Shown in pieces: positions 3,957 to 36,106 of a stretch of 64,000 nt of DNA. This DNA comes from an uncultured Candidatus Saccharibacteria bacterium. Its GTDB lineage: Bacteria > Patescibacteriota > Minisyncoccia > Phycocordibacterales > CAIZLB01. The notes under the pieces were generated by a model that saw only the letters and a program-made list of their open reading frames with translations, was not told the origin of the DNA and searched no databases. The stretch is taken from contig CAZVIP010000003.1 in assembly GCA_964627085.1 (NCBI GenBank), forward strand, positions 19,689-83,688. The letters are read 5' to 3'. The position numbers were made by a program, and so were the translations under genes. How positions within the stretch are numbered: position 1 is the first letter of the stretch; every line of letters begins with the position of its first letter.

Positions 3957-5213
3957 TTATTTTTTTACGATATACGCATCAATGACTTCATTGTCTACAT
4001 TTTTAAAATAACAGAGAGCTGTGTCTTTTTTACCTTCATAATTAAATGCACAAAACATTGATCCGTATTTTGCACCTTGGCTTGATGTATACACAGTAGA
4101 CCACCACGGACTTGTATATGTCTGCGGTCTGATACTCTTGCCACCTAGACCTGATACCGTAACAAATGATTTGCCTTTTTCTAGGTGTATTTCATCAACA
4201 AGACTTGAACCAGAAACACCAGCGGGATCTGACGCTGACCCTAAGCGAACCATATTTTTTGGAGATATAATTTGCTTTTCAAAACTATCCATCAAATAAG
4301 TTCGTGAATATGAATGTTCATGTCCGGTGACAATAGGAAAACCAAGGGCTCGACAAGCTTCATATGTTTGCCAGCCTGCCTCGTCAGGTTTGCTTCCAGC
4401 CTGCATAAGATGTTGATTTTTGTGCCAAACACAGAAGTTCCATGTTGCTGACAAATCTTTCATTGAAGACGCTGAAGATGTAATATAGTTTGCAAAATTC
4501 TCTTTGGTCTCTTTGATTGAATCAATACCTGGTGCCGTAATGTACATATGTAAATCACGGAACGTGCACGTTGATTTAATCGCTGTTTCCCCCGTACATT
4601 TGACTGATGGTGTATTTTTTTGATGGGAAGAAATTAACTGACTATACCCTTTCCATTCTTTTTCATCATGATTTCCAATAACTGCAATGAGTGGAAAATC
4701 TTTTCCAAGGACATTTGTGAACATGCTATACCATAAATTTGGATTATCAATATAATCATAATCCCCGAGCAGAGCGAGCGCATCTGCATTTTCATTTTTG
4801 ATGAGTTTAAGTACATCTGTGGTATTTGTATCAGCACCTTGGTCACCGACAAAAGCTACAATATATGTACTTTTGTTCATTGCTTTGATTTTAGCCGCGT
4901 CGATACTTAGATTTGAAATTGTTTTTTCTTTGTCAGGGCTAATTGAGGCCTGATTTGATGTATCTACAGCAACTTGAGTGTCATCGTCCGTCGCAGGATT
5001 ATTGACTTGTCCTTCATTCATACCCTGGCTTGTACCGAGACCACTATTTGCGCCGGTTTGCTTATCATATAAATCTTTTTGTTTTGTAGAGCGGTCGATA
5101 ATACTATCGAATTCTTTTGAGCTCTTTTGCGTATACCAATATACACCTCCGAGTGCACCTGCGATGAGGAGCAAAATAATCATCATTGCGATTACCGTTT
5201 TTTGCATGTTCAT
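3957..5213 (-). CDS. Membrane-anchored calcineurin-like metallophosphoesterase
   Basis: The motifs VGDQGAD, LLGDYDY, GNHDE and VTGHEHSY are present. I placed the start at the internal Met (MNMQKTV + TM helix), because the longer ORF to 5336 overlaps tsaD. Confidence 0.7.
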   Translation of the reverse strand: MNMQKTVIAMMIILLLIAGALGGVYWYTQKSSKEFDSIIDRSTKQKDLYDKQTGANSGLGTSQGMNEGQVNNPATDDDTQVAVDTSNQASISPDKEKTISNLSIDAAKIKAMNKSTYIVAFVGDQGADTNTTDVLKLIKNENADALALLGDYDYIDNPNLWYSMFTNVLGKDFPLIAVIGNHDEKEWKGYSQLISSHQKNTPSVKCTGETAIKSTCTFRDLHMYITAPGIDSIKETKENFANYITSSASSMKDLSATWNFCVWHKNQHLMQAGSKPDEAGWQTYEACRALGFPIVTGHEHSYSRTYLMDSFEKQIISPKNMVRLGSASDPAGVSGSSLVDEIHLEKGKSFVTVSGLGGKSIRPQTYTSPWWSTVYTSSQGAKYGSMFCAFNYEGKKDTALCYFKNVDNEVIDAYIVKK

Positions 5214-23956: not shown

Positions 23957-24405
23957 GTTTTTGGTAGTAGGATGTTGGTATATTTGGATAATTGATAGAA
24001 AAACAATACCACACTTACTCAATATCTCAAATGCGATTATGTACCAATTGCAAATGCATATCAAATGCGACAGGCTTGCATTAACTAAACCTCTATGCTA
24101 TCCTACCAAATGAAGCAAAGCCTATGCTTCACTGCACAAATCAAACTGACTCAGAGGCAGAGTCAATTCTCGGGTTAGAAAGGCCCAGAAGACATCATGA
24201 ACACCAAGTGGCCCGCATGGGCACTCAAAGGCATCAGCCTCCTCCGCCCCGGTCGGCGCACTGCACTCCAAAAGGGGTGCAATTGCCCAGCCGGGCGCTG
24301 CCGCTGCTAGCGCCTAAGGTTTCTGTGATCGACGCTCCGCTTAACCACAGCTGAGCTAGATCCAGGAATCCTGGCACGACCATGTGTCGTAGCCAAAAAT
24401 ACGCA

Positions 24406-24458
24406 GACCGTTCGCAACAGAACCCTCGTGGTTCAAACGTTGCGGACGGTCTTTTTTT
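24406..24458 (+). terminator. Strong intrinsic terminator at the end of a GC-rich noncoding island
   Basis: 13-bp stem gaccgttcgcaac/gttgcggacggtc followed by TTTTTTT. Confidence 0.65.
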
Positions 24459-24572
24459 AACTTTTCTATATTTTAATTTTACATATTTCATCGAATCCTC
24501 GCGAAATACCTCACGAGATTGAATTTAACAGTAGAATACCAAGCCGACAGCAAAATTTGCTATACTGTATAT

Positions 24573-26292: not shown

Positions 26293-26413
26293 GCTAAGTG
26301 TGTGAAGACGGGTGAAAAAGCTTTGTAAATAAGGTTATTTTGCAACTCCCTCCTGCCTGCTTGGTCAATAATTGTTGGTATGCAATGCAAGGGTCATGAT
26401 ACATTACGTGTAT

Positions 26414-26443
26414 TTGACAATAAGGGATATAATATGTTATAAT
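26414..26443 (+). promoter_or_regulatory. Near-consensus sigma70 promoter with extended -10 (TTGACA-18-TGtTATAAT)
   Basis: TTGACA at 26414-26419 and TATAAT at 26438-26443, preceded by TG. Confidence 0.6.
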
Positions 26444-26621
26444 ATTAGCAGAAATTTCTTATACTCTTATGAGTATCTGAGTCCGTTTTCCTTCAATCTC
26501 CTATCCGCCACACGATGTGGTTTATAGGATCTTTGAGGGAAAACGGATAGCTCCTTCACAAGATACTGTTTGCTATCCAAAACAAACTGAATGAAACCGG
26601 GGCACTGCCCCACAAAACTGA

Positions 26622-28094
26622 ATGAAAACTGCTACACTGAAAGTAACACACATCGGCCGAATCACCACAGTCTCTCAAGACTTTGCATACGGCTTTATCA
26701 GCATCGCCACGGTCTCCAAGATCGACGATATCCAACACGGTCTTGCGACCACAGTGGATATCTACATCCATCAAAATGATTGCAGCTCACGACCTCTCAG
26801 GGTCGGCATGCTTGTATCATTTGATGTCACACCTGACCTAACACGGGCGGGTGCGTTCCGAGCAATCGGAGCTGTTGAGGAAATCGAGGCAGAACTCCTC
26901 CCTGAAGGCCAACAGCCGATGGAAGGATTCAACGCTCTCGCGCCCTTTGCTGGGACATCCACGCTTGCACAAGCCGATAACGGTGGCTACATCCCGCCAA
27001 CACAAGCACAGGCACCAAAGATGAAGGCTTCCGACCCGGCAACACTCGCATTGGTTAGTGCAAACAACCCGGCGCCTGGCATCCCACGGGACCACACGGT
27101 CCCGGAAAACGTTGACGAGCTTATGGTATTGTTTCTACAAAACCAATACCCCTCGCTAGTTAGTTTCGGTGCGCACTTTGGTCTGGACTCGGATGAAACT
27201 GAGTTCAATGAGCAAGTATCAGCAGCGACAGAAGAACTGAGAGGACTCGGCATGGATACCCAAGTCGGAATCCTCGAGAACGAGGCAGCTCACTTCTTGT
27301 CATTCCGCAAGGCCTTGGTCATTATGAAGCGCGAAAAACTCATCCGGAAAGACGCCATCATCCCGATGGAGTTCTTACCAGACTTCTTCGCAGCAGTTCC
27401 AGTTTGGTTCCATTTCGGAAGTGATGAGGAGCACAGGTTGGCAACTAACGGCGATCAGCGTGGGGCCTTGCTGGTTCCACCAAGAATCAGAGCATTCTGC
27501 AGCATTTTCCCCAACCAAAACTGGGTAGACATGCTATTGATGTTCAATCGCCGTCCAAGAACACACCAGATGTATGCAGGAGATCAAATCCCACTAAGCG
27601 TCCTTCGTCGTGTTCGGGAGATGCTCCCACATTTTGATCACGTGGTCATCATGACCCCTTATCACGATGTGGCAGGAAGGGATTGGCAGAGGCTTAGCAC
27701 CCTCCGTAATCCTGACCCATACATCATTGGAGTCAAGGTAGGGGTTCCATACTTCTTCATTCTCGCCAGGTTCAGCGACAGCGGGACATTCCCTGCTCAT
27801 CACGAACTAATTGCAGACACAATGAAATTCTTGGACAACAACAAGGACAAGTTGAGAGGTTTCAACTCAACACCAGGTCTCGAGTGGCTCGGATACGACC
27901 CTATCAATCCCAGCCGGACAGTAGGGGACATTTCTTCCATGAATGGCATGGGTGTTGGTCGGGCAAACTCCCTCGGTGATCATCTCATCAAAACAGCCGA
28001 AGAAGCTCTCCTTGCTTTCGAGCAAGGAAAACTCTTCGATTGGCTCCGGGGAGCAAAGCTTGAACCAGTGACTGAAACAGCTTCGGCAAAATAA
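26622..28094 (+). CDS. Hypothetical 490-aa protein: cold-shock-domain-like N-terminus fused to a large domain of unknown function
   Basis: The N-terminus (LKVTHIGRITTVSQDFAYGFISI...TVDIYIHQNDC...VGMLVSFDV) follows the CspA pattern (KGxVKWFNxxKGFGFI...VFVHxSAI...VxFxV). The gene is GC-rich, with its own promoter, long leader and terminator. Confidence 0.6.
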   Translation: MKTATLKVTHIGRITTVSQDFAYGFISIATVSKIDDIQHGLATTVDIYIHQNDCSSRPLRVGMLVSFDVTPDLTRAGAFRAIGAVEEIEAELLPEGQQPMEGFNALAPFAGTSTLAQADNGGYIPPTQAQAPKMKASDPATLALVSANNPAPGIPRDHTVPENVDELMVLFLQNQYPSLVSFGAHFGLDSDETEFNEQVSAATEELRGLGMDTQVGILENEAAHFLSFRKALVIMKREKLIRKDAIIPMEFLPDFFAAVPVWFHFGSDEEHRLATNGDQRGALLVPPRIRAFCSIFPNQNWVDMLLMFNRRPRTHQMYAGDQIPLSVLRRVREMLPHFDHVVIMTPYHDVAGRDWQRLSTLRNPDPYIIGVKVGVPYFFILARFSDSGTFPAHHELIADTMKFLDNNKDKLRGFNSTPGLEWLGYDPINPSRTVGDISSMNGMGVGRANSLGDHLIKTAEEALLAFEQGKLFDWLRGAKLEPVTETASAK

Positions 28095-28185
28095 GTCCTG
28101 GCGAGGGCCGTCTCGAGATGCAGACAGTATCAATACGAAAGGTGAGTAGACTCACACGCATGAGATGAGCGTTCAACATATTCTC

Positions 28186-28220
28186 AGCCTCAGACCATTC
28201 CGGTCTGAGGCTTTTCTATT
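28186..28220 (+). terminator. Intrinsic terminator (agcctcagacc/ggtctgaggct + TTTCTATT)
   Basis: 11-bp stem directly after the 26622..28094 gene. Confidence 0.65.
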
Positions 28221-28296
28221 GCATAGGTTTTATGTATCGAAAAAGAGAAATAATCTGTGAGAAAATTTTACCTGTGCTCAAGCCAGAACTTCAAGA

Positions 28297-30300
28297 TTAA
28301 GGCTCAATCTTATCAGGCTCAAGGACGAGTACGTCTTCGGTTTTTTCTATCTCTTTCATTGTATCTGTCATTGCGCCATCTGTAGTTGCACTATGTTTTG
28401 TATCAGTGTCTTGTGTTGCACCCTCGGATTCAGTGGTGACAACAGTGCTCTTTGCATCGACATTTCCGGTGGAGATATTGGACTCGCTCGTAGCTGTAGT
28501 TGTATCACCAGCAGAATTGGTGACGGCGCGACCAGAAGCATCAGACACAGATGCAGACAAAGACGCAGGCACAGCACCAGCGGTCGCGAATTGTGGACGA
28601 CTGGTTTTGCCAAAGATTGTAGCGAAAGGAATTTTCTTGTGGAGTGTTTCGGAGACTTCTTCGAGCTCTTTGCTGCCCAGCGCCTTGAGTACAAAAATAC
28701 CTACGATAATTCCAATACAACCAGCGACAAAGCCGTGAAGGAAAACACCTCGTAGTGTTGTGAGGTCAAATACTCCGTCAAAAATATTGAGCGCTACATA
28801 TGCGAAAAATCCTCCGATGACACCAGCGCCAAGTGAGCCAATCCATACTCTCCATGTTTCGCGAAGCAGAAGGCCGTGACTGAAATCTTTTTCAAATTTA
28901 ACCCAGAATGCGAGTGTGTTTACAATTGTTCCGAGTGTGTATCCGAGCGGTAGCATCAAAATTTCGATACCTGCAATTCCCTCTACTCTAAATAATCTTG
29001 CAAAAAAGTTTCCAAACTCCGGACTCACACGATAAAGCCAGATAAATGCGAGCGGTGATCCAATTGTGAGCACTGATGAAAGTAAATTGATAACAAGTGG
29101 TTTTCTTGTCTCACCTGCTGCATAGTATGCGCGTATAAATAATAATTCGAGAGACTGTCCAACAAGTGATATGACAAAGAGCGCAAGACATGCTGCGGTC
29201 AATCTCGTATTATCCCAATTGAAGTTTCCAGAACCGAGAACAGTTCGTACAATTTGTGCGCGGAGGACTATGAACAAAGCTGAAATCGGAACGGACCAAA
29301 AGATAACATGTCGCATCGCATTGACGATTTGATTCATGAACTTATCTCGCTCCCCTTTTGCAAAATATGCACTGAGTGTTGGAAATGCCGCGAGCGCATA
29401 ACTAACACCAACAATACCAAGTGGTACTGATTGTATATTAAAAGAAAAACTCAAAATAGAGATTGACCCGATGGTGAGTGTTGATGCGAGTGCTGTTAAA
29501 AATACAAGTTCAAGCATTGATGCTGAAAGCGTCAATGTTCGTGGAACTGAAAGTGCAAATACTTCACGCACGATTTTCCAGTCGATATTGCGTGGGAGGC
29601 GGAGGCGCGGGAGGAGGCGCTCTTTTTTAATAAAAGGAATTTGAATACTGAAATGTAAAATACCTCCGAGCACAACACCCCACACCACACCTGAAATGCC
29701 GAGAAATGGCCGTATAAAGAATATACCGAAGATAATGGCCACATTGTATACAATTGGTGAAATTGCATATAACACAAATCTTTTGCGAAGCTGTGTCAGT
29801 GATCCTAGAATGTTTGAAAGCCCTAAACAGATTGGCTGCAAGAGCAGAATTCGAGACAGAAATACAACTTGATCGATCACATGTTGATTATCAGCAAAAC
29901 CTTTGAAGACATTTTTTGTTAACCATGGCATGAGCATGTAGAAAATCGCAGAGAGCACAATCATCATGATTCCAAATGTATTGAAAATTGAATCAAGGAG
30001 ATTGCGGACTTTTTCATGTCCTTTTTCTGAATCACTCTCACTACTTTCTGCGCGATTAATAAATGGGATAATAACTGAGATTGAAACAAGTGACGCAGCA
30101 GTTGCAAAAATTACATCCGGAATTCGAAAGGCAGCATAATAGATATCAAGTGTTTGACCAGCTCCAAAAAAATGTGCCAAAGCTCTGTCACGCACAAGCC
30201 CCAAGAGTTGGGCGAGTAATGTAAAAAATCCAATCAAAAATGCCGCCTGATGGACGCCAATAATTTCACGGTTAAATAGTTTGAGGATTTTGGATACCAT
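28297..30300 (-). CDS. murJ: Lipid II flippase MurJ (MviN) with Ser/Thr-rich C-terminal extension
   Basis: About 14 TM helices. MviN-like start MVSKILKLFNREIIGVHQAAFLIGFFTLLAQLLGLVRDR...FFGAG. Confidence 0.85.
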   Translation of the reverse strand: MVSKILKLFNREIIGVHQAAFLIGFFTLLAQLLGLVRDRALAHFFGAGQTLDIYYAAFRIPDVIFATAASLVSISVIIPFINRAESSESDSEKGHEKVRNLLDSIFNTFGIMMIVLSAIFYMLMPWLTKNVFKGFADNQHVIDQVVFLSRILLLQPICLGLSNILGSLTQLRKRFVLYAISPIVYNVAIIFGIFFIRPFLGISGVVWGVVLGGILHFSIQIPFIKKERLLPRLRLPRNIDWKIVREVFALSVPRTLTLSASMLELVFLTALASTLTIGSISILSFSFNIQSVPLGIVGVSYALAAFPTLSAYFAKGERDKFMNQIVNAMRHVIFWSVPISALFIVLRAQIVRTVLGSGNFNWDNTRLTAACLALFVISLVGQSLELLFIRAYYAAGETRKPLVINLLSSVLTIGSPLAFIWLYRVSPEFGNFFARLFRVEGIAGIEILMLPLGYTLGTIVNTLAFWVKFEKDFSHGLLLRETWRVWIGSLGAGVIGGFFAYVALNIFDGVFDLTTLRGVFLHGFVAGCIGIIVGIFVLKALGSKELEEVSETLHKKIPFATIFGKTSRPQFATAGAVPASLSASVSDASGRAVTNSAGDTTTATSESNISTGNVDAKSTVVTTESEGATQDTDTKHSATTDGAMTDTMKEIEKTEDVLVLEPDKIEP

Positions 30301-31014: not shown

Positions 31015-31222
31015 TATGATTTATGGTAATAAATAATTTCCGCAATTCGCAAAATGCGCGATCACCCCACCCCTATCGCCCAATATTGCCTTTTGCATAT
31101 TTTGGAATACTATATACACGGAAAATTCCATTCACGAGGTTTGGGTTAGTGTCAGGCAAAATACTTTGTCCCCTACTCACCTCAATCAGCACAACACGGC
31201 GAGAGCCAAACCACAATTGAAT

Positions 31223-32086
31223 ATGAAACCGCACACTATTAACCCAAAACTCCGCTATGCATGCATTGCTCGTGCAGAAATTGCTGCGAACCTAGCTCAA
31301 AAGAAAACTCGAACCAGCAGAGAAAATGCATGGAAAAACATCTGCCGCGACATTCGTCGAGGGCGCTCGACATTCGGAGACCCACAAAACCCTCTGCTCG
31401 ACAAGCTCATCTTGTCTCTTGGGCAGAGCGTTTTGCACAAACCTGACTTACTTGGAAGCATAGTAGAGAGGGCCAAAAGAAATATTACCGCCCTGCAAGA
31501 AGCTGGCAACACCGTGGTCTTCGTCGTCGAATATGAAGAAAAAGGTGCGAGGCTCGCATATATCGGGCCGTACGGAGGTGAAAGTCTCGGAAATCTTATG
31601 CCCAGCAATCCAGGAACACGCTCAGAGTTTCTTATATTTGCTGGTATCACTTCCGGTGATGCGAATGCTGTTGAAACCTTTGTCGATAGCATCTTGCCCC
31701 GAAAACCAAAAAGTGCCGCGGAGTTGATGGCAATTCCGGGTAGCCCTGAACCAGCAGTCGAACTACCATTTCAAAAATTCGTCATGGTGGACACAGGCAA
31801 ATTCATGTGCACAGATTCAGATGGACTATCTCCAGTGCAGGATGGGCCATGCCTAGTGGATCCAGAGCATGCTGAACAGTTGCGTCCAGCCCTGCTAGGC
31901 CTCGGATTACGTGATTTCGAAGTGTATATCTGGGGAAGCTGCTTATGCTGGGACGACTTATCCAAAAACGACCAGAACGGCTTAGTTATCAAAAACGTGC
32001 AGTCTGAACGGCTCCAGCAACGCCTCGGAGATATCCGCCTTGCATTACAGAGCCTCGGTTGGGGTCTGGAAACTGCCCCAGCATAA
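31223..32086 (+). CDS. Hypothetical protein (GC-rich orphan)
   Basis: Clean ORF from ATG 31223 (MKPHTINPK...). I recognise no family. It is followed by a strong bidirectional terminator. Confidence 0.5.
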   Translation: MKPHTINPKLRYACIARAEIAANLAQKKTRTSRENAWKNICRDIRRGRSTFGDPQNPLLDKLILSLGQSVLHKPDLLGSIVERAKRNITALQEAGNTVVFVVEYEEKGARLAYIGPYGGESLGNLMPSNPGTRSEFLIFAGITSGDANAVETFVDSILPRKPKSAAELMAIPGSPEPAVELPFQKFVMVDTGKFMCTDSDGLSPVQDGPCLVDPEHAEQLRPALLGLGLRDFEVYIWGSCLCWDDLSKNDQNGLVIKNVQSERLQQRLGDIRLALQSLGWGLETAPA

Positions 32087-35500: not shown

Positions 35501-36106
35501 TTACTTCACTAGTGAACGACCGATTTGTTCTACTTTTTTGAGAAAAGCTTCTTTGTCCCCTTCAGATCTCCAGGTCTTTTTGTCGAGCACTTTGAATGCA
35601 CGAGTTTTCATTCCACAGTAGCCGATGATTGCGAATTGCCAGATTAGGCGAAACGGCTGAGCCATGAGTGTGTATAAAAACATCGATCCATCACATGTGA
35701 TAAAGACTGATGCAGTCTTCCCTTTGAGGAGCCCAACTAATTTTCCATTCACATACTGAAAGGCAAAATGTGCAGAAATATTTTGATCAAGGAAGTTCTT
35801 CATAATCGCCGGTGCACCGAGCCACCAAAGCGGATGAATAAATACAAGTTCATCTGCCGAAGATATTTTTGCCTGGATTGCAGTTCGGGCCGCATCCGGT
35901 GCAATGTCTCGAGGTGTTTCAAAAGTAAGGAAGGGTTGTTTCAAATCTGTTTTGTAAAGGTCAAGTATTTCTGCAGTACCCCCAGCACTCTCAAGCCCCA
36001 GCTTATACCTCTCTGCAATCTTATGTGTAAATCCAAGAGAGCTCGGATGAGCAGTGATGATAAGGGCGTGCTTTGTTTTCTTGATTTCAGTGTTTGTATT
36101 TTCCAT
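35501..36106 (-). CDS. Flavodoxin-like fold NAD(P)H-dependent oxidoreductase (FMN reductase / NQO-like)
   Basis: ALIITAHPSSLGFTHKIAERY... and ADELVFIHPLWWLGAPAIMKNFLDQ are typical Flavodoxin_2 family blocks. Confidence 0.65.
   Translation of the reverse strand: MENTNTEIKKTKHALIITAHPSSLGFTHKIAERYKLGLESAGGTAEILDLYKTDLKQPFLTFETPRDIAPDAARTAIQAKISSADELVFIHPLWWLGAPAIMKNFLDQNISAHFAFQYVNGKLVGLLKGKTASVFITCDGSMFLYTLMAQPFRLIWQFAIIGYCGMKTRAFKVLDKKTWRSEGDKEAFLKKVEQIGRSLVK

Follow-up and report, generated by a model that had tools for sequence, protein, structure and literature searches.

What does a long, strongly folded leader do in front of a single gene for a protein without a named family, in an uncultured bacterium? 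The case considered here is a promoter-to-terminator unit on contig CAZVIP010000003.1 of GenBank assembly GCA_964627085.1, from an uncultured Candidatus Saccharibacteria bacterium. We analysed 64,000 nucleotides (nt) of this contig (positions 19,689 to 83,688, forward strand), which are called the window below and to which all coordinates refer unless a homologous locus is named. A preliminary annotation made from the letters alone (the original prediction) had described, at 26414-28220, a self-contained cassette rich in guanine and cytosine (GC) with a structured leader, a duplicated start site and a protein resembling cold-shock proteins. Our analysis resolves the unit into a promoter, a structured leader RNA of ~100 nt, a gene for a protein in which a cold-shock domain (CSD) precedes a domain of ~370 amino acids, and an intrinsic terminator, and finds it conserved across many lineages of Patescibacteria. 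The objects of interest at this locus are the conserved leader motif and the orphan fusion protein, not the duplicated start, the upstream open reading frame (uORF) or the GC content. The principal features of the unit outside the protein are as follows.

26414-26443, + strand: sigma-70-type promoter, with the -35 element TTGACA at 26414-26419, TG at 26435-26436 and the -10 element TATAAT at 26438-26443
26485-26591, + strand: conserved leader RNA motif (covariance-model match, 94 bits)
26486-26496 with 26533-26543, + strand: helix P1, which extends to 26483/26546 in the window
26499-26504 with 26524-26529, + strand: helix P2, part of the leader motif
26508-26512 with 26516-26520, + strand: helix P3, part of the leader motif
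26545-26551 with 26572-26578, + strand: helix P4, after which comes the tail
26552-26571, + strand: P4 loop of 20 nt, the CUCCUUCACAAGAUACUGUUUG region, pyrimidine-rich, conserved and unstructured
28186-28221, + strand: intrinsic terminator, an 11-base-pair stem (28186-28212) with 7 GC pairs, then a T-run

The 260 nt upstream of the gene were compared across loci from GTDB genomes and JGI metagenomes, which revealed a shared layout. It begins with a near-consensus promoter, followed by UUUUCCUUCAG-(n)CUCCUG, a variable hairpin and yAGGAUCyCUGAAGGAAA, which make up P1, P2 and P3. On the 3′ side lies the hairpin P4, whose stem sequence differs by lineage and whose loop reads UUCCUUyA..GAU.CUGACUG, and after P4 a tail, A(A)CUGACUGA, leads into GGAGG (in lineages using Shine-Dalgarno sequences) and the start codon. 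The motif of ~100 nt has four helices in all: P1, P2 and P3 stack into a long three-tier hairpin, a near-continuous duplex of ~25 base pairs, and P4 stands directly after it. Both sequence and structure are kept in loci from metagenome-assembled genomes (MAGs) of Nomurabacteria, Kaiserbacteria, Moranbacteria, Uhrbacteria, Doudnabacteria and Paceibacterota.

Because MAFFT alignments of the leaders misplaced the register of the P4 3′ strand, P4 was modelled from a seed of five sequences and all leaders were re-aligned with the resulting covariance model, R1. Searched over both strands of 610 kb, this model gave a single plus-strand match per locus in 44 of 77 sources, and three further matches in loci fetched later (L080-L082) brought the total to 47 loci. 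All convincing matches (plus strand, 24-103 bits) lie directly upstream of this one gene family; the other matches in the 610 kb are only weak minus-strand echoes of the same hairpin. The window copy is the sole match in its 64 kb.

Base pairing in the motif is upheld by covariation. In a model-based alignment of 37 distinct sequences, 94.3% of cells hold standard pairs, compared with 75.0% after shuffling and 40-58% when partners are slid by 1-3 columns, compensatory changes occur in 27 of 28 pairs, and double-change cells number 204 where 52 are expected, all figures that are inflated somewhat by the fitting of the alignment to the model. An independent MAFFT/RNAalifold run found P1-P3 with 14 of 15 pairs compensated, and a model-free stem search recovered P4 as unrelated yet complementary stems in different lineages (GGATAG/CTATCC, GGGCGG/CCGCCC, GCGGAC/GTCCGC and TGGGTAA/TTACCCA). 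No Rfam 15 family was matched in the window at gathering score, and a search of 26380-26700 at E ≤ 10 returned only noise (microRNA models, <22 bits). The leader is a conserved RNA structure that is absent from Rfam and does not belong to any described RNA family. The original prediction had seen a structured leader here and had left room for its hairpins to lack conservation; contrary to that reservation, the helices are conserved with covariation in homologous loci. In one of these loci, L080, the public gene call of family member P0004 (5001-5078 within the leader) begins inside the motif (match 4969-5069; CSD from ~5094), so some database entries of the family are probably over-extended at the N terminus.

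The surrounding layout fits a compact, independently transcribed gene. In the window the promoter makes 12 of 12 consensus matches, with 18 nt between the -35 hexamer and the TG-TATAAT element. Among the 19 homologous loci for which the full 260-nt upstream stretch was available, 12 have a top promoter-like site scoring 11-12 of 12; wherever the leader motif is present, the best site lies upstream of it. Counted from the inferred start of transcription (~26450) up to the ATG at 26622, the leader measures ~172 nt, and in relatives the distance from -10 hexamer to start codon is usually 105-190 nt. With a predicted folding energy of -60.7 kcal/mol, the 191-nt stretch 26450-26640 is more stable than its dinucleotide shuffles (-34.8 ± 3.9 kcal/mol; z = -6.7; 0 of 200 as good), and the three-tier hairpin at 26481-26548 dominates this predicted fold. 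The main open reading frame (ORF), 26622-28094, encodes 490 amino acids. All elements listed in the original prediction (promoter, hairpin, repeats, uORF, 490-residue ORF, terminator and GC difference) are present in the sequence, and its description of the unit as self-contained holds up well, since the gene is monocistronic with its own promoter region and its neighbours vary between lineages.

Two observations on the window genome concern its translation starts more generally. Shine-Dalgarno-like motifs precede just 4 of 53 long ORFs, so the missing Shine-Dalgarno sequence at this gene is the local norm. In addition, several ORFs, for example those with starts at 36106 (-), 44642 (-) and 24573 (+), have a TATAAT-like box a few nt before the ATG, which suggests that many mRNAs of this genome are leaderless or carry very short leaders; against such a background a leader of 172 nt stands out.

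The conserved unpaired nucleotides lie mainly in the P4 loop and the tail. The loop is 20-26 nt long in most sequences and folds no better than shuffles (mean z +0.23), so it is probably presented single-stranded; a small hairpin within it was considered and rejected on the same evidence. Sequences of the form CTG[AT]CTG occur 0.96 times per 100 nt in leaders versus 0.0067 elsewhere, a ~140-fold enrichment, usually once in the P4 loop and once or twice in the tail. The single-stranded tail repeats CUGACUG and leads directly into the ribosome-binding site (RBS) and start codon. In the window the first copy of the heptamer (CUG(A/U)CUG type), in the loop, is degenerate and reads CUGUUUG. Divergent leaders at L008 (4873-4950) and L012 (~4930-4997) carry ACUAUCU/CUACUAUCU repeats in place of the CUGACUG repeats. 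Those of L008 are copies of the P4 3′ strand (AACUAUC), a hint that in this lineage the P4 5′ strand may have an alternative pairing partner.

A second pairing partner may exist for the canonical loop as well, as its 5′ part resembles the P1 5′ strand and is complementary to the P1 3′ strand. Duplexes between the P1 3′ strand and the P4 loop of the same leader average -9.1 kcal/mol, compared with -7.1 kcal/mol when partners are permuted (a value as low was reached in 0 of 5000 permutations) and -4.0 kcal/mol for shuffled loops, and this alternative pairing is considered possible. Transcription attenuation is unlikely because no U-run follows any leader helix on inspection of the leader sequences, and an attenuator was rejected for that reason.

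The protein encoded downstream falls into three parts.

26646-26882, + strand: predicted cold-shock domain (residues ~9-87), with five beta-strands, an RNP1-like YGFI and an RNP2-like IYIH
26883-26975, + strand: linker (residues ~88-118), variable in the family, with a predicted local distance difference test score (pLDDT) below 50 for residues 90-118
26976-28094, + strand: C-terminal alpha/beta domain (residues 119-490) plus the stop codon, without an assigned family

Its family comprises 66 close homologues and 197 clusters at 50% identity, and all members with a source name come from Patescibacteria MAGs. Nearly all are named "hypothetical", with one source giving "cold shock CspA family protein". 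Searches of Pfam, PADLOC, NCBIfam and PHROGs gave no match for the window protein or for distant members, and no Pfam hit was obtained for any of the 66 close or 197 representative homologues. A profile search seeded with 69 distant members returned 104 matches, all of which fall within the same unnamed family, and none of these has a Pfam match either.

In a confident AlphaFold2 model built from a 55-sequence alignment (pLDDT 85.7), residues 10-86 form an N-terminal barrel of five strands and residues 90-118 a disordered linker, after which comes a large alpha/beta domain. The predicted barrel is antiparallel and superposable on solved CSDs. The family consensus includes GYGFIGI and DIFxHQ, with F25 and H50 present in at least 90% of the 55 sequences, and HMMER aligns the YGFI and IYIH of the window protein with the RNP motifs of Lin28 and YB-1. 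There was no Pfam CSD hit for this domain even at E ≤ 10. Profile matches in the PDB are all to cold-shock or Y-box domain proteins at E values of only 0.7-2, and E. coli CspA reached one family member by tblastn at E = 0.005. Judged by its modelled structure, the N-terminal domain belongs to the CSD superfamily, although the curated sequence model does not recognise it. The cold-shock character that the original prediction saw in the N terminus is borne out by the predicted five-stranded barrel, the RNP-type residues and PDB profile matches confined to CSDs. The domain shares that barrel and aromatic residues at the RNP1 and RNP2 positions with CspA/CspB, Y-box proteins, Lin28 and Unr. Unlike known CSDs, it is too divergent for the Pfam model, has an insertion of ~10 residues between strands 2 and 3, and is fused to a large unrelated domain.

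That C-terminal domain carries the conserved motifs PVW, NRRxR, TPYHD, DPY, RFSDSGxFP and LFDWLRG, and belongs to no described family or solved fold. PDB profile searches returned nothing for it, and the earlier statement that the remainder of the protein has no recognisable motif has stood for ~370 residues through both family and PDB profile searches. Because it is fused to a CSD, we suggest that it may act on RNA or single-stranded nucleic acid. In this respect the architecture is reminiscent of RNase R and RNase II (CSD-CSD-RNB-S1), in that the N-terminal CSD could direct the larger module behind it towards single-stranded RNA. Variants of the protein also occur. In L023 (4902-6062), L038 (4455-5642) and L039 (4422-5744) the C-terminal domain is encoded alone, without CSD and leader motif; some such stand-alone versions are found in MAGs labelled Woesearchaeota or Actinomycetes, labels that may reflect binning errors. 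A subfamily (P0046, P0058 and P0064) has an insertion of ~45 residues after a long helix.

Leader and CSD tend to travel together. Of more than 50 CSD-containing loci with sufficient upstream DNA, only 7 gave no match to the canonical leader, whereas it was matched in 0 of ~10 loci without a CSD. CSDs generally prefer single-stranded RNA, and negative autoregulation is known for other RNA-binding proteins and has been proposed for Csp proteins acting on csp leaders. From the architecture of the unit and this co-occurrence we tentatively propose, with a probability of roughly 40%, that the leader is a protein-binding operator that allows the CSD-bearing product to keep its own synthesis in check. 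The leader would act in cis and set the amount of protein at the level of translation initiation or mRNA stability, with the gene's own product as the most likely effector. The CSD would bind the single-stranded, pyrimidine-rich P4 loop, the pyrimidine-rich P1 5′ strand and/or the CUGACUG repeats beside the start codon, and binding would either occlude the start site or re-pair the leader. Support for this operator comes from the association of the leader with the CSD, the preference of CSDs for single-stranded RNA and the precedent of the csp leaders of Staphylococcus aureus.

Autoregulatory leaders of RNA-binding proteins include the operators of ribosomal-protein genes and the pnp and rnc leaders, which are processed by RNase III. 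Like these, the leader described here is structured, specific to one gene with an RNA-binding-type product, adjacent to the start site and free of a terminator; it differs in having no homology to the curated Rfam leader families and in that binding is a prediction. In S. aureus, the cspB and cspC 5′ untranslated regions (UTRs) form a long hairpin with alternative pairings, and CspA is proposed to bind a U-rich, single-stranded loop there; thermoswitch 5′ UTRs of csp genes measure 110-160 nt, and the cspA leader of E. coli and the csp leaders of Listeria monocytogenes are cited in the same work (PMC8034633). Common to our unit and the csp leaders of these three species are a leader of ~100-190 nt before a CSD gene and a long hairpin with a pyrimidine-rich, anti-RBS-like strand for which alternative pairings are possible. 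The differences are considerable: there is no similarity in sequence or to Rfam models, the P1-P3 plus P4 layout with its large conserved loop and CUGACUG repeats is distinct, no temperature response is predicted here, the regulated protein is a fusion of 450-530 residues rather than a Csp of ~70, and the motif is conserved across many candidate phyla rather than within one genus. We infer that the leader resembles csp mRNA switches without being homologous to them, and that by analogy the unit is most like csp and other autoregulatory leaders of RNA-binding proteins.

Several points weigh against the operator proposal. The argument for autoregulation draws on architecture and on the co-occurrence of CSD and leader, and the latter is confounded by phylogeny in that the members without a CSD are mostly distant. 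Seven CSD-containing loci (L012, L022, L029, L030, L031, L035 and L053) show no clear leader match, and the pairing statistics carry the inflation mentioned above. A column-wise test of the pairing between the P1 3′ strand and the P4 loop is weak (81.6% paired versus 80.2% shuffled; score reached by 12 of 500 shuffles). A pseudoknot between the P4 loop and the tail or RBS was rejected, as it did no better than shuffled or permuted partners (-5.2 kcal/mol against -5.0 kcal/mol for shuffled tails) and showed no covariation. Finally, the conformer of the window sequence with P1 open is ~14 kcal/mol less stable, so that any switching would have to rely on a factor or proceed kinetically.

That cost bears equally on a temperature switch of the csp type, in which two mutually exclusive conformers would alternate and the opened hairpin would free its anti-RBS-like strand (UUCCUU, CUCCU) to pair with the start region. 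Temperature, possibly together with Csp-type proteins, would choose the conformer, perhaps kinetically, and production of the protein would largely be confined to either cold or warm conditions. The presence of a CSD in the product speaks for such a switch, as do the overlap of the ~100-nt core and of the 105-190 nt from -10 hexamer to start codon with the size of csp thermoswitches, the anti-Shine-Dalgarno-like CUCCU and UUCCUU in the 5′ strand of the long hairpin, and the permutation test for the alternative P1 3′ strand/P4-loop pairing. The same 5′ strand pairs with the tail and RBS slightly better than with shuffled tails (-9.6 versus -8.3 kcal/mol; better in 24 of 35 sequences), but no covariation was found between the two, and the pairing and covariation tests of the leaders yielded no supported helix covering the RBS. 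Moreover, in partition-function folding at equilibrium from 5 to 55 °C, P1 stays closed (unpaired 0.00-0.04) and the start region becomes barely more open (0.66 to 0.79 unpaired), so that a melting-type thermometer was rejected for equilibrium folding in this range; the RNA thermometer offered in the original prediction does not survive this calculation. Together with the lack of Rfam matches, these results make a temperature switch unlikely in our view. Slightly better placed, and still improbable, is a constitutive element for stability or processing, in which the 5′ hairpin would block 5′-end-dependent decay or serve as an RNase III site while the conserved loop and tail recruit ribosomes as a translational enhancer or standby site, with no feedback. 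Consistent with this, the motif often lies near the mRNA 5′ end (it begins ~12-16 nt past the -10 hexamer in L004, L005, L006 and L010, which have a clear promoter), P1-P3 form a long near-continuous duplex, the near-consensus promoter and the raised GC content at third codon positions (GC3; below) fit high expression, neither a terminator nor a clear sequestering helix was found, and RNase J is encoded by the window genome. A mere stabiliser, however, needs no conserved loop of 20-26 nt, repeated heptamers or second conserved helix; conservation across very divergent lineages is typical of a specific recognition site, and all convincing matches precede a single gene family.

Strong covariation, a gene-specific location and conserved unpaired nucleotides would also suit a metabolite or ion riboswitch, in which the P1 3′ strand, P4 and its loop form a pseudoknotted pocket for a ligand tied to an enzymatic function of the C-terminal domain. 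The order P1-3′, P4-5′, loop, P4-3′ would, by our reasoning, allow an H-type pseudoknot with fitting loop lengths. The covariation for that pseudoknot is weak, however, and an aptamer-like multi-helix junction or internal-loop core is missing, the conserved nucleotides lying mainly in one open loop and a linear tail. Because the sole regulated family encodes an RNA-binding domain, a protein effector is favoured over a small ligand, and we regard a riboswitch as quite improbable. Less probable still is a foreign or mobile cassette of recent acquisition, a notion invited by the original prediction, which called the unit compositionally foreign and pointed to phage or defence neighbourhoods. The ORF is indeed the long ORF of highest GC content in the window (0.51, with 0.41 for the whole window), and each lineage examined has its own set of neighbours: Fur, DsbB, DsbA and MscL upstream and MurJ downstream in the window, SecDF and PolA, UvrD, sigma-70 and DnaG, or FtsH and RecG elsewhere. 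Nearly all recognisable neighbours are housekeeping genes, however, and no conserved gene neighbourhood emerged across the loci examined. No recognisable mobile-element or defence genes stand beside the unit in these loci, a repeat scan of 26300-28300 found no terminal repeats, and there were no relatives among 2.9 million viral contigs and no PHROG or PADLOC match, so that the survey of homologous neighbourhoods lends nothing to a phage or defence context.

The compositional claim is not supported either. The excess resides at third codon positions. In the window ORF GC3 stands at 0.54, where the median is 0.34; of 32 homologous loci, 30 have a GC3 above the median of their neighbourhood (by +0.13 on average), and in 25 of 32 it is the local maximum. 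At codon positions 1 and 2 the mean difference is only +0.02. It is found whatever the GC content of the host, and tracks it. A synonymous, family-wide excess of this kind argues against foreign origin. Combined with the consensus promoter, it suggests a highly expressed gene under codon selection. The excess could reflect either expression-linked codon bias or selection on the mRNA.

The duplicated start site in the window is a separate matter and involves most of the remaining features of the leader.

26461-26476, + strand: small 5′-proximal hairpin AUACUC-UUAU-GAGUAU, present in minimum-free-energy structures
26584-26596, + strand: tail element copy 1, AAACUGAAUGAAA, aligned to the consensus tail by the covariance model
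26591-26779, + strand: out-of-frame 62-codon ORF from the ATG of copy 1, with no equivalent in the other leaders examined
26597-26613, + strand: GC hairpin CCGGGGCACTGCCCCAC between the repeat copies, a lineage-specific insertion
26615-26627, + strand: tail element copy 2 with the in-frame start at 26622; the N terminus MKTATLKVTHIGRI aligns with family N termini

The 5′-proximal hairpin is a lineage extra between the inferred transcription start and the conserved motif. Further downstream, the two tail copies share an exact 13-nt direct repeat, AAACTGAATGAAA, which extends to the 15/16-nt element of the original prediction with a 1-nt indel. Copy 1 occupies the ancestral position of the conserved ACUGACUGA tail and start codon. 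In relatives the start follows directly after this tail, with L004 using CUGACUGAAAUG as start and L006 having CUGACUGAAUG-UAG, then GUG. The window lineage has gained 31 nt, consisting of an 18-nt segment with the GC hairpin plus the second 13-nt tail copy. As this length is not divisible by three, the old AUG at 26591 no longer shares the reading frame of the gene, and the working AUG is that of the new copy. This insertion is also seen in contigs from three other samples, and nothing similar occurs in the other lineages examined; the GC hairpin is unique in the window and absent from all other leaders examined. A mobile hairpin element was rejected, as neither the 17-nt hairpin nor the 13-nt repeat is found anywhere else in the window. 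The uORF is most likely a by-product of the insertion, and the duplication, judged by these comparisons, is a local accident outside the conserved design, although the GC hairpin may favour the second AUG. The start-site decoy and uORF that the original prediction had read as regulatory design are accordingly confined, among the loci examined, to this one lineage.

Two other stretches of the window attracted attention. An intergenic stretch at 24118-24462 (+), which separates the Fur-like gene from dsbB and is GC-rich (~0.50), has a folding energy of -140 kcal/mol (z = -6.3), closes with a long terminator hairpin followed by T7, and matches no Rfam family even at E ≤ 10; it is a candidate for an unannotated structured RNA of ~340 nt. 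The ORF at 31037-32083 (+) has the second-highest GC content among long ORFs of the window (0.49, GC3 0.48) and no Pfam match.

Patescibacteria, ultra-small uncultured bacteria, account for a large part of bacterial diversity, and many of their proteins lack an assigned function; to our knowledge, almost nothing is known of gene regulation in these organisms. The leader adds a new structured RNA, documented by its 37 distinct sequences and 27 of 28 covarying pairs, that is small enough for in vitro probing and binding assays. The protein adds a widespread, apparently highly expressed family with a 370-residue domain that is modelled confidently yet has no match among solved structures. Should the CSD bind its own leader, the unit would constitute a conserved post-transcriptional feedback loop in Patescibacteria and could be used to work out the RNA specificity of the C-terminal domain and, from that, its function. 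A bolder proposition, which we put forward as doubtful, is that the leader founds a new Patescibacteria-specific class of cis-regulatory RNA, by which a CSD-guided enzyme of unseen fold senses its own level or its load of RNA substrate. If true, this would be a widely conserved, highly expressed and self-regulating module of RNA metabolism in reduced genomes, with no counterpart in cultivated bacteria.

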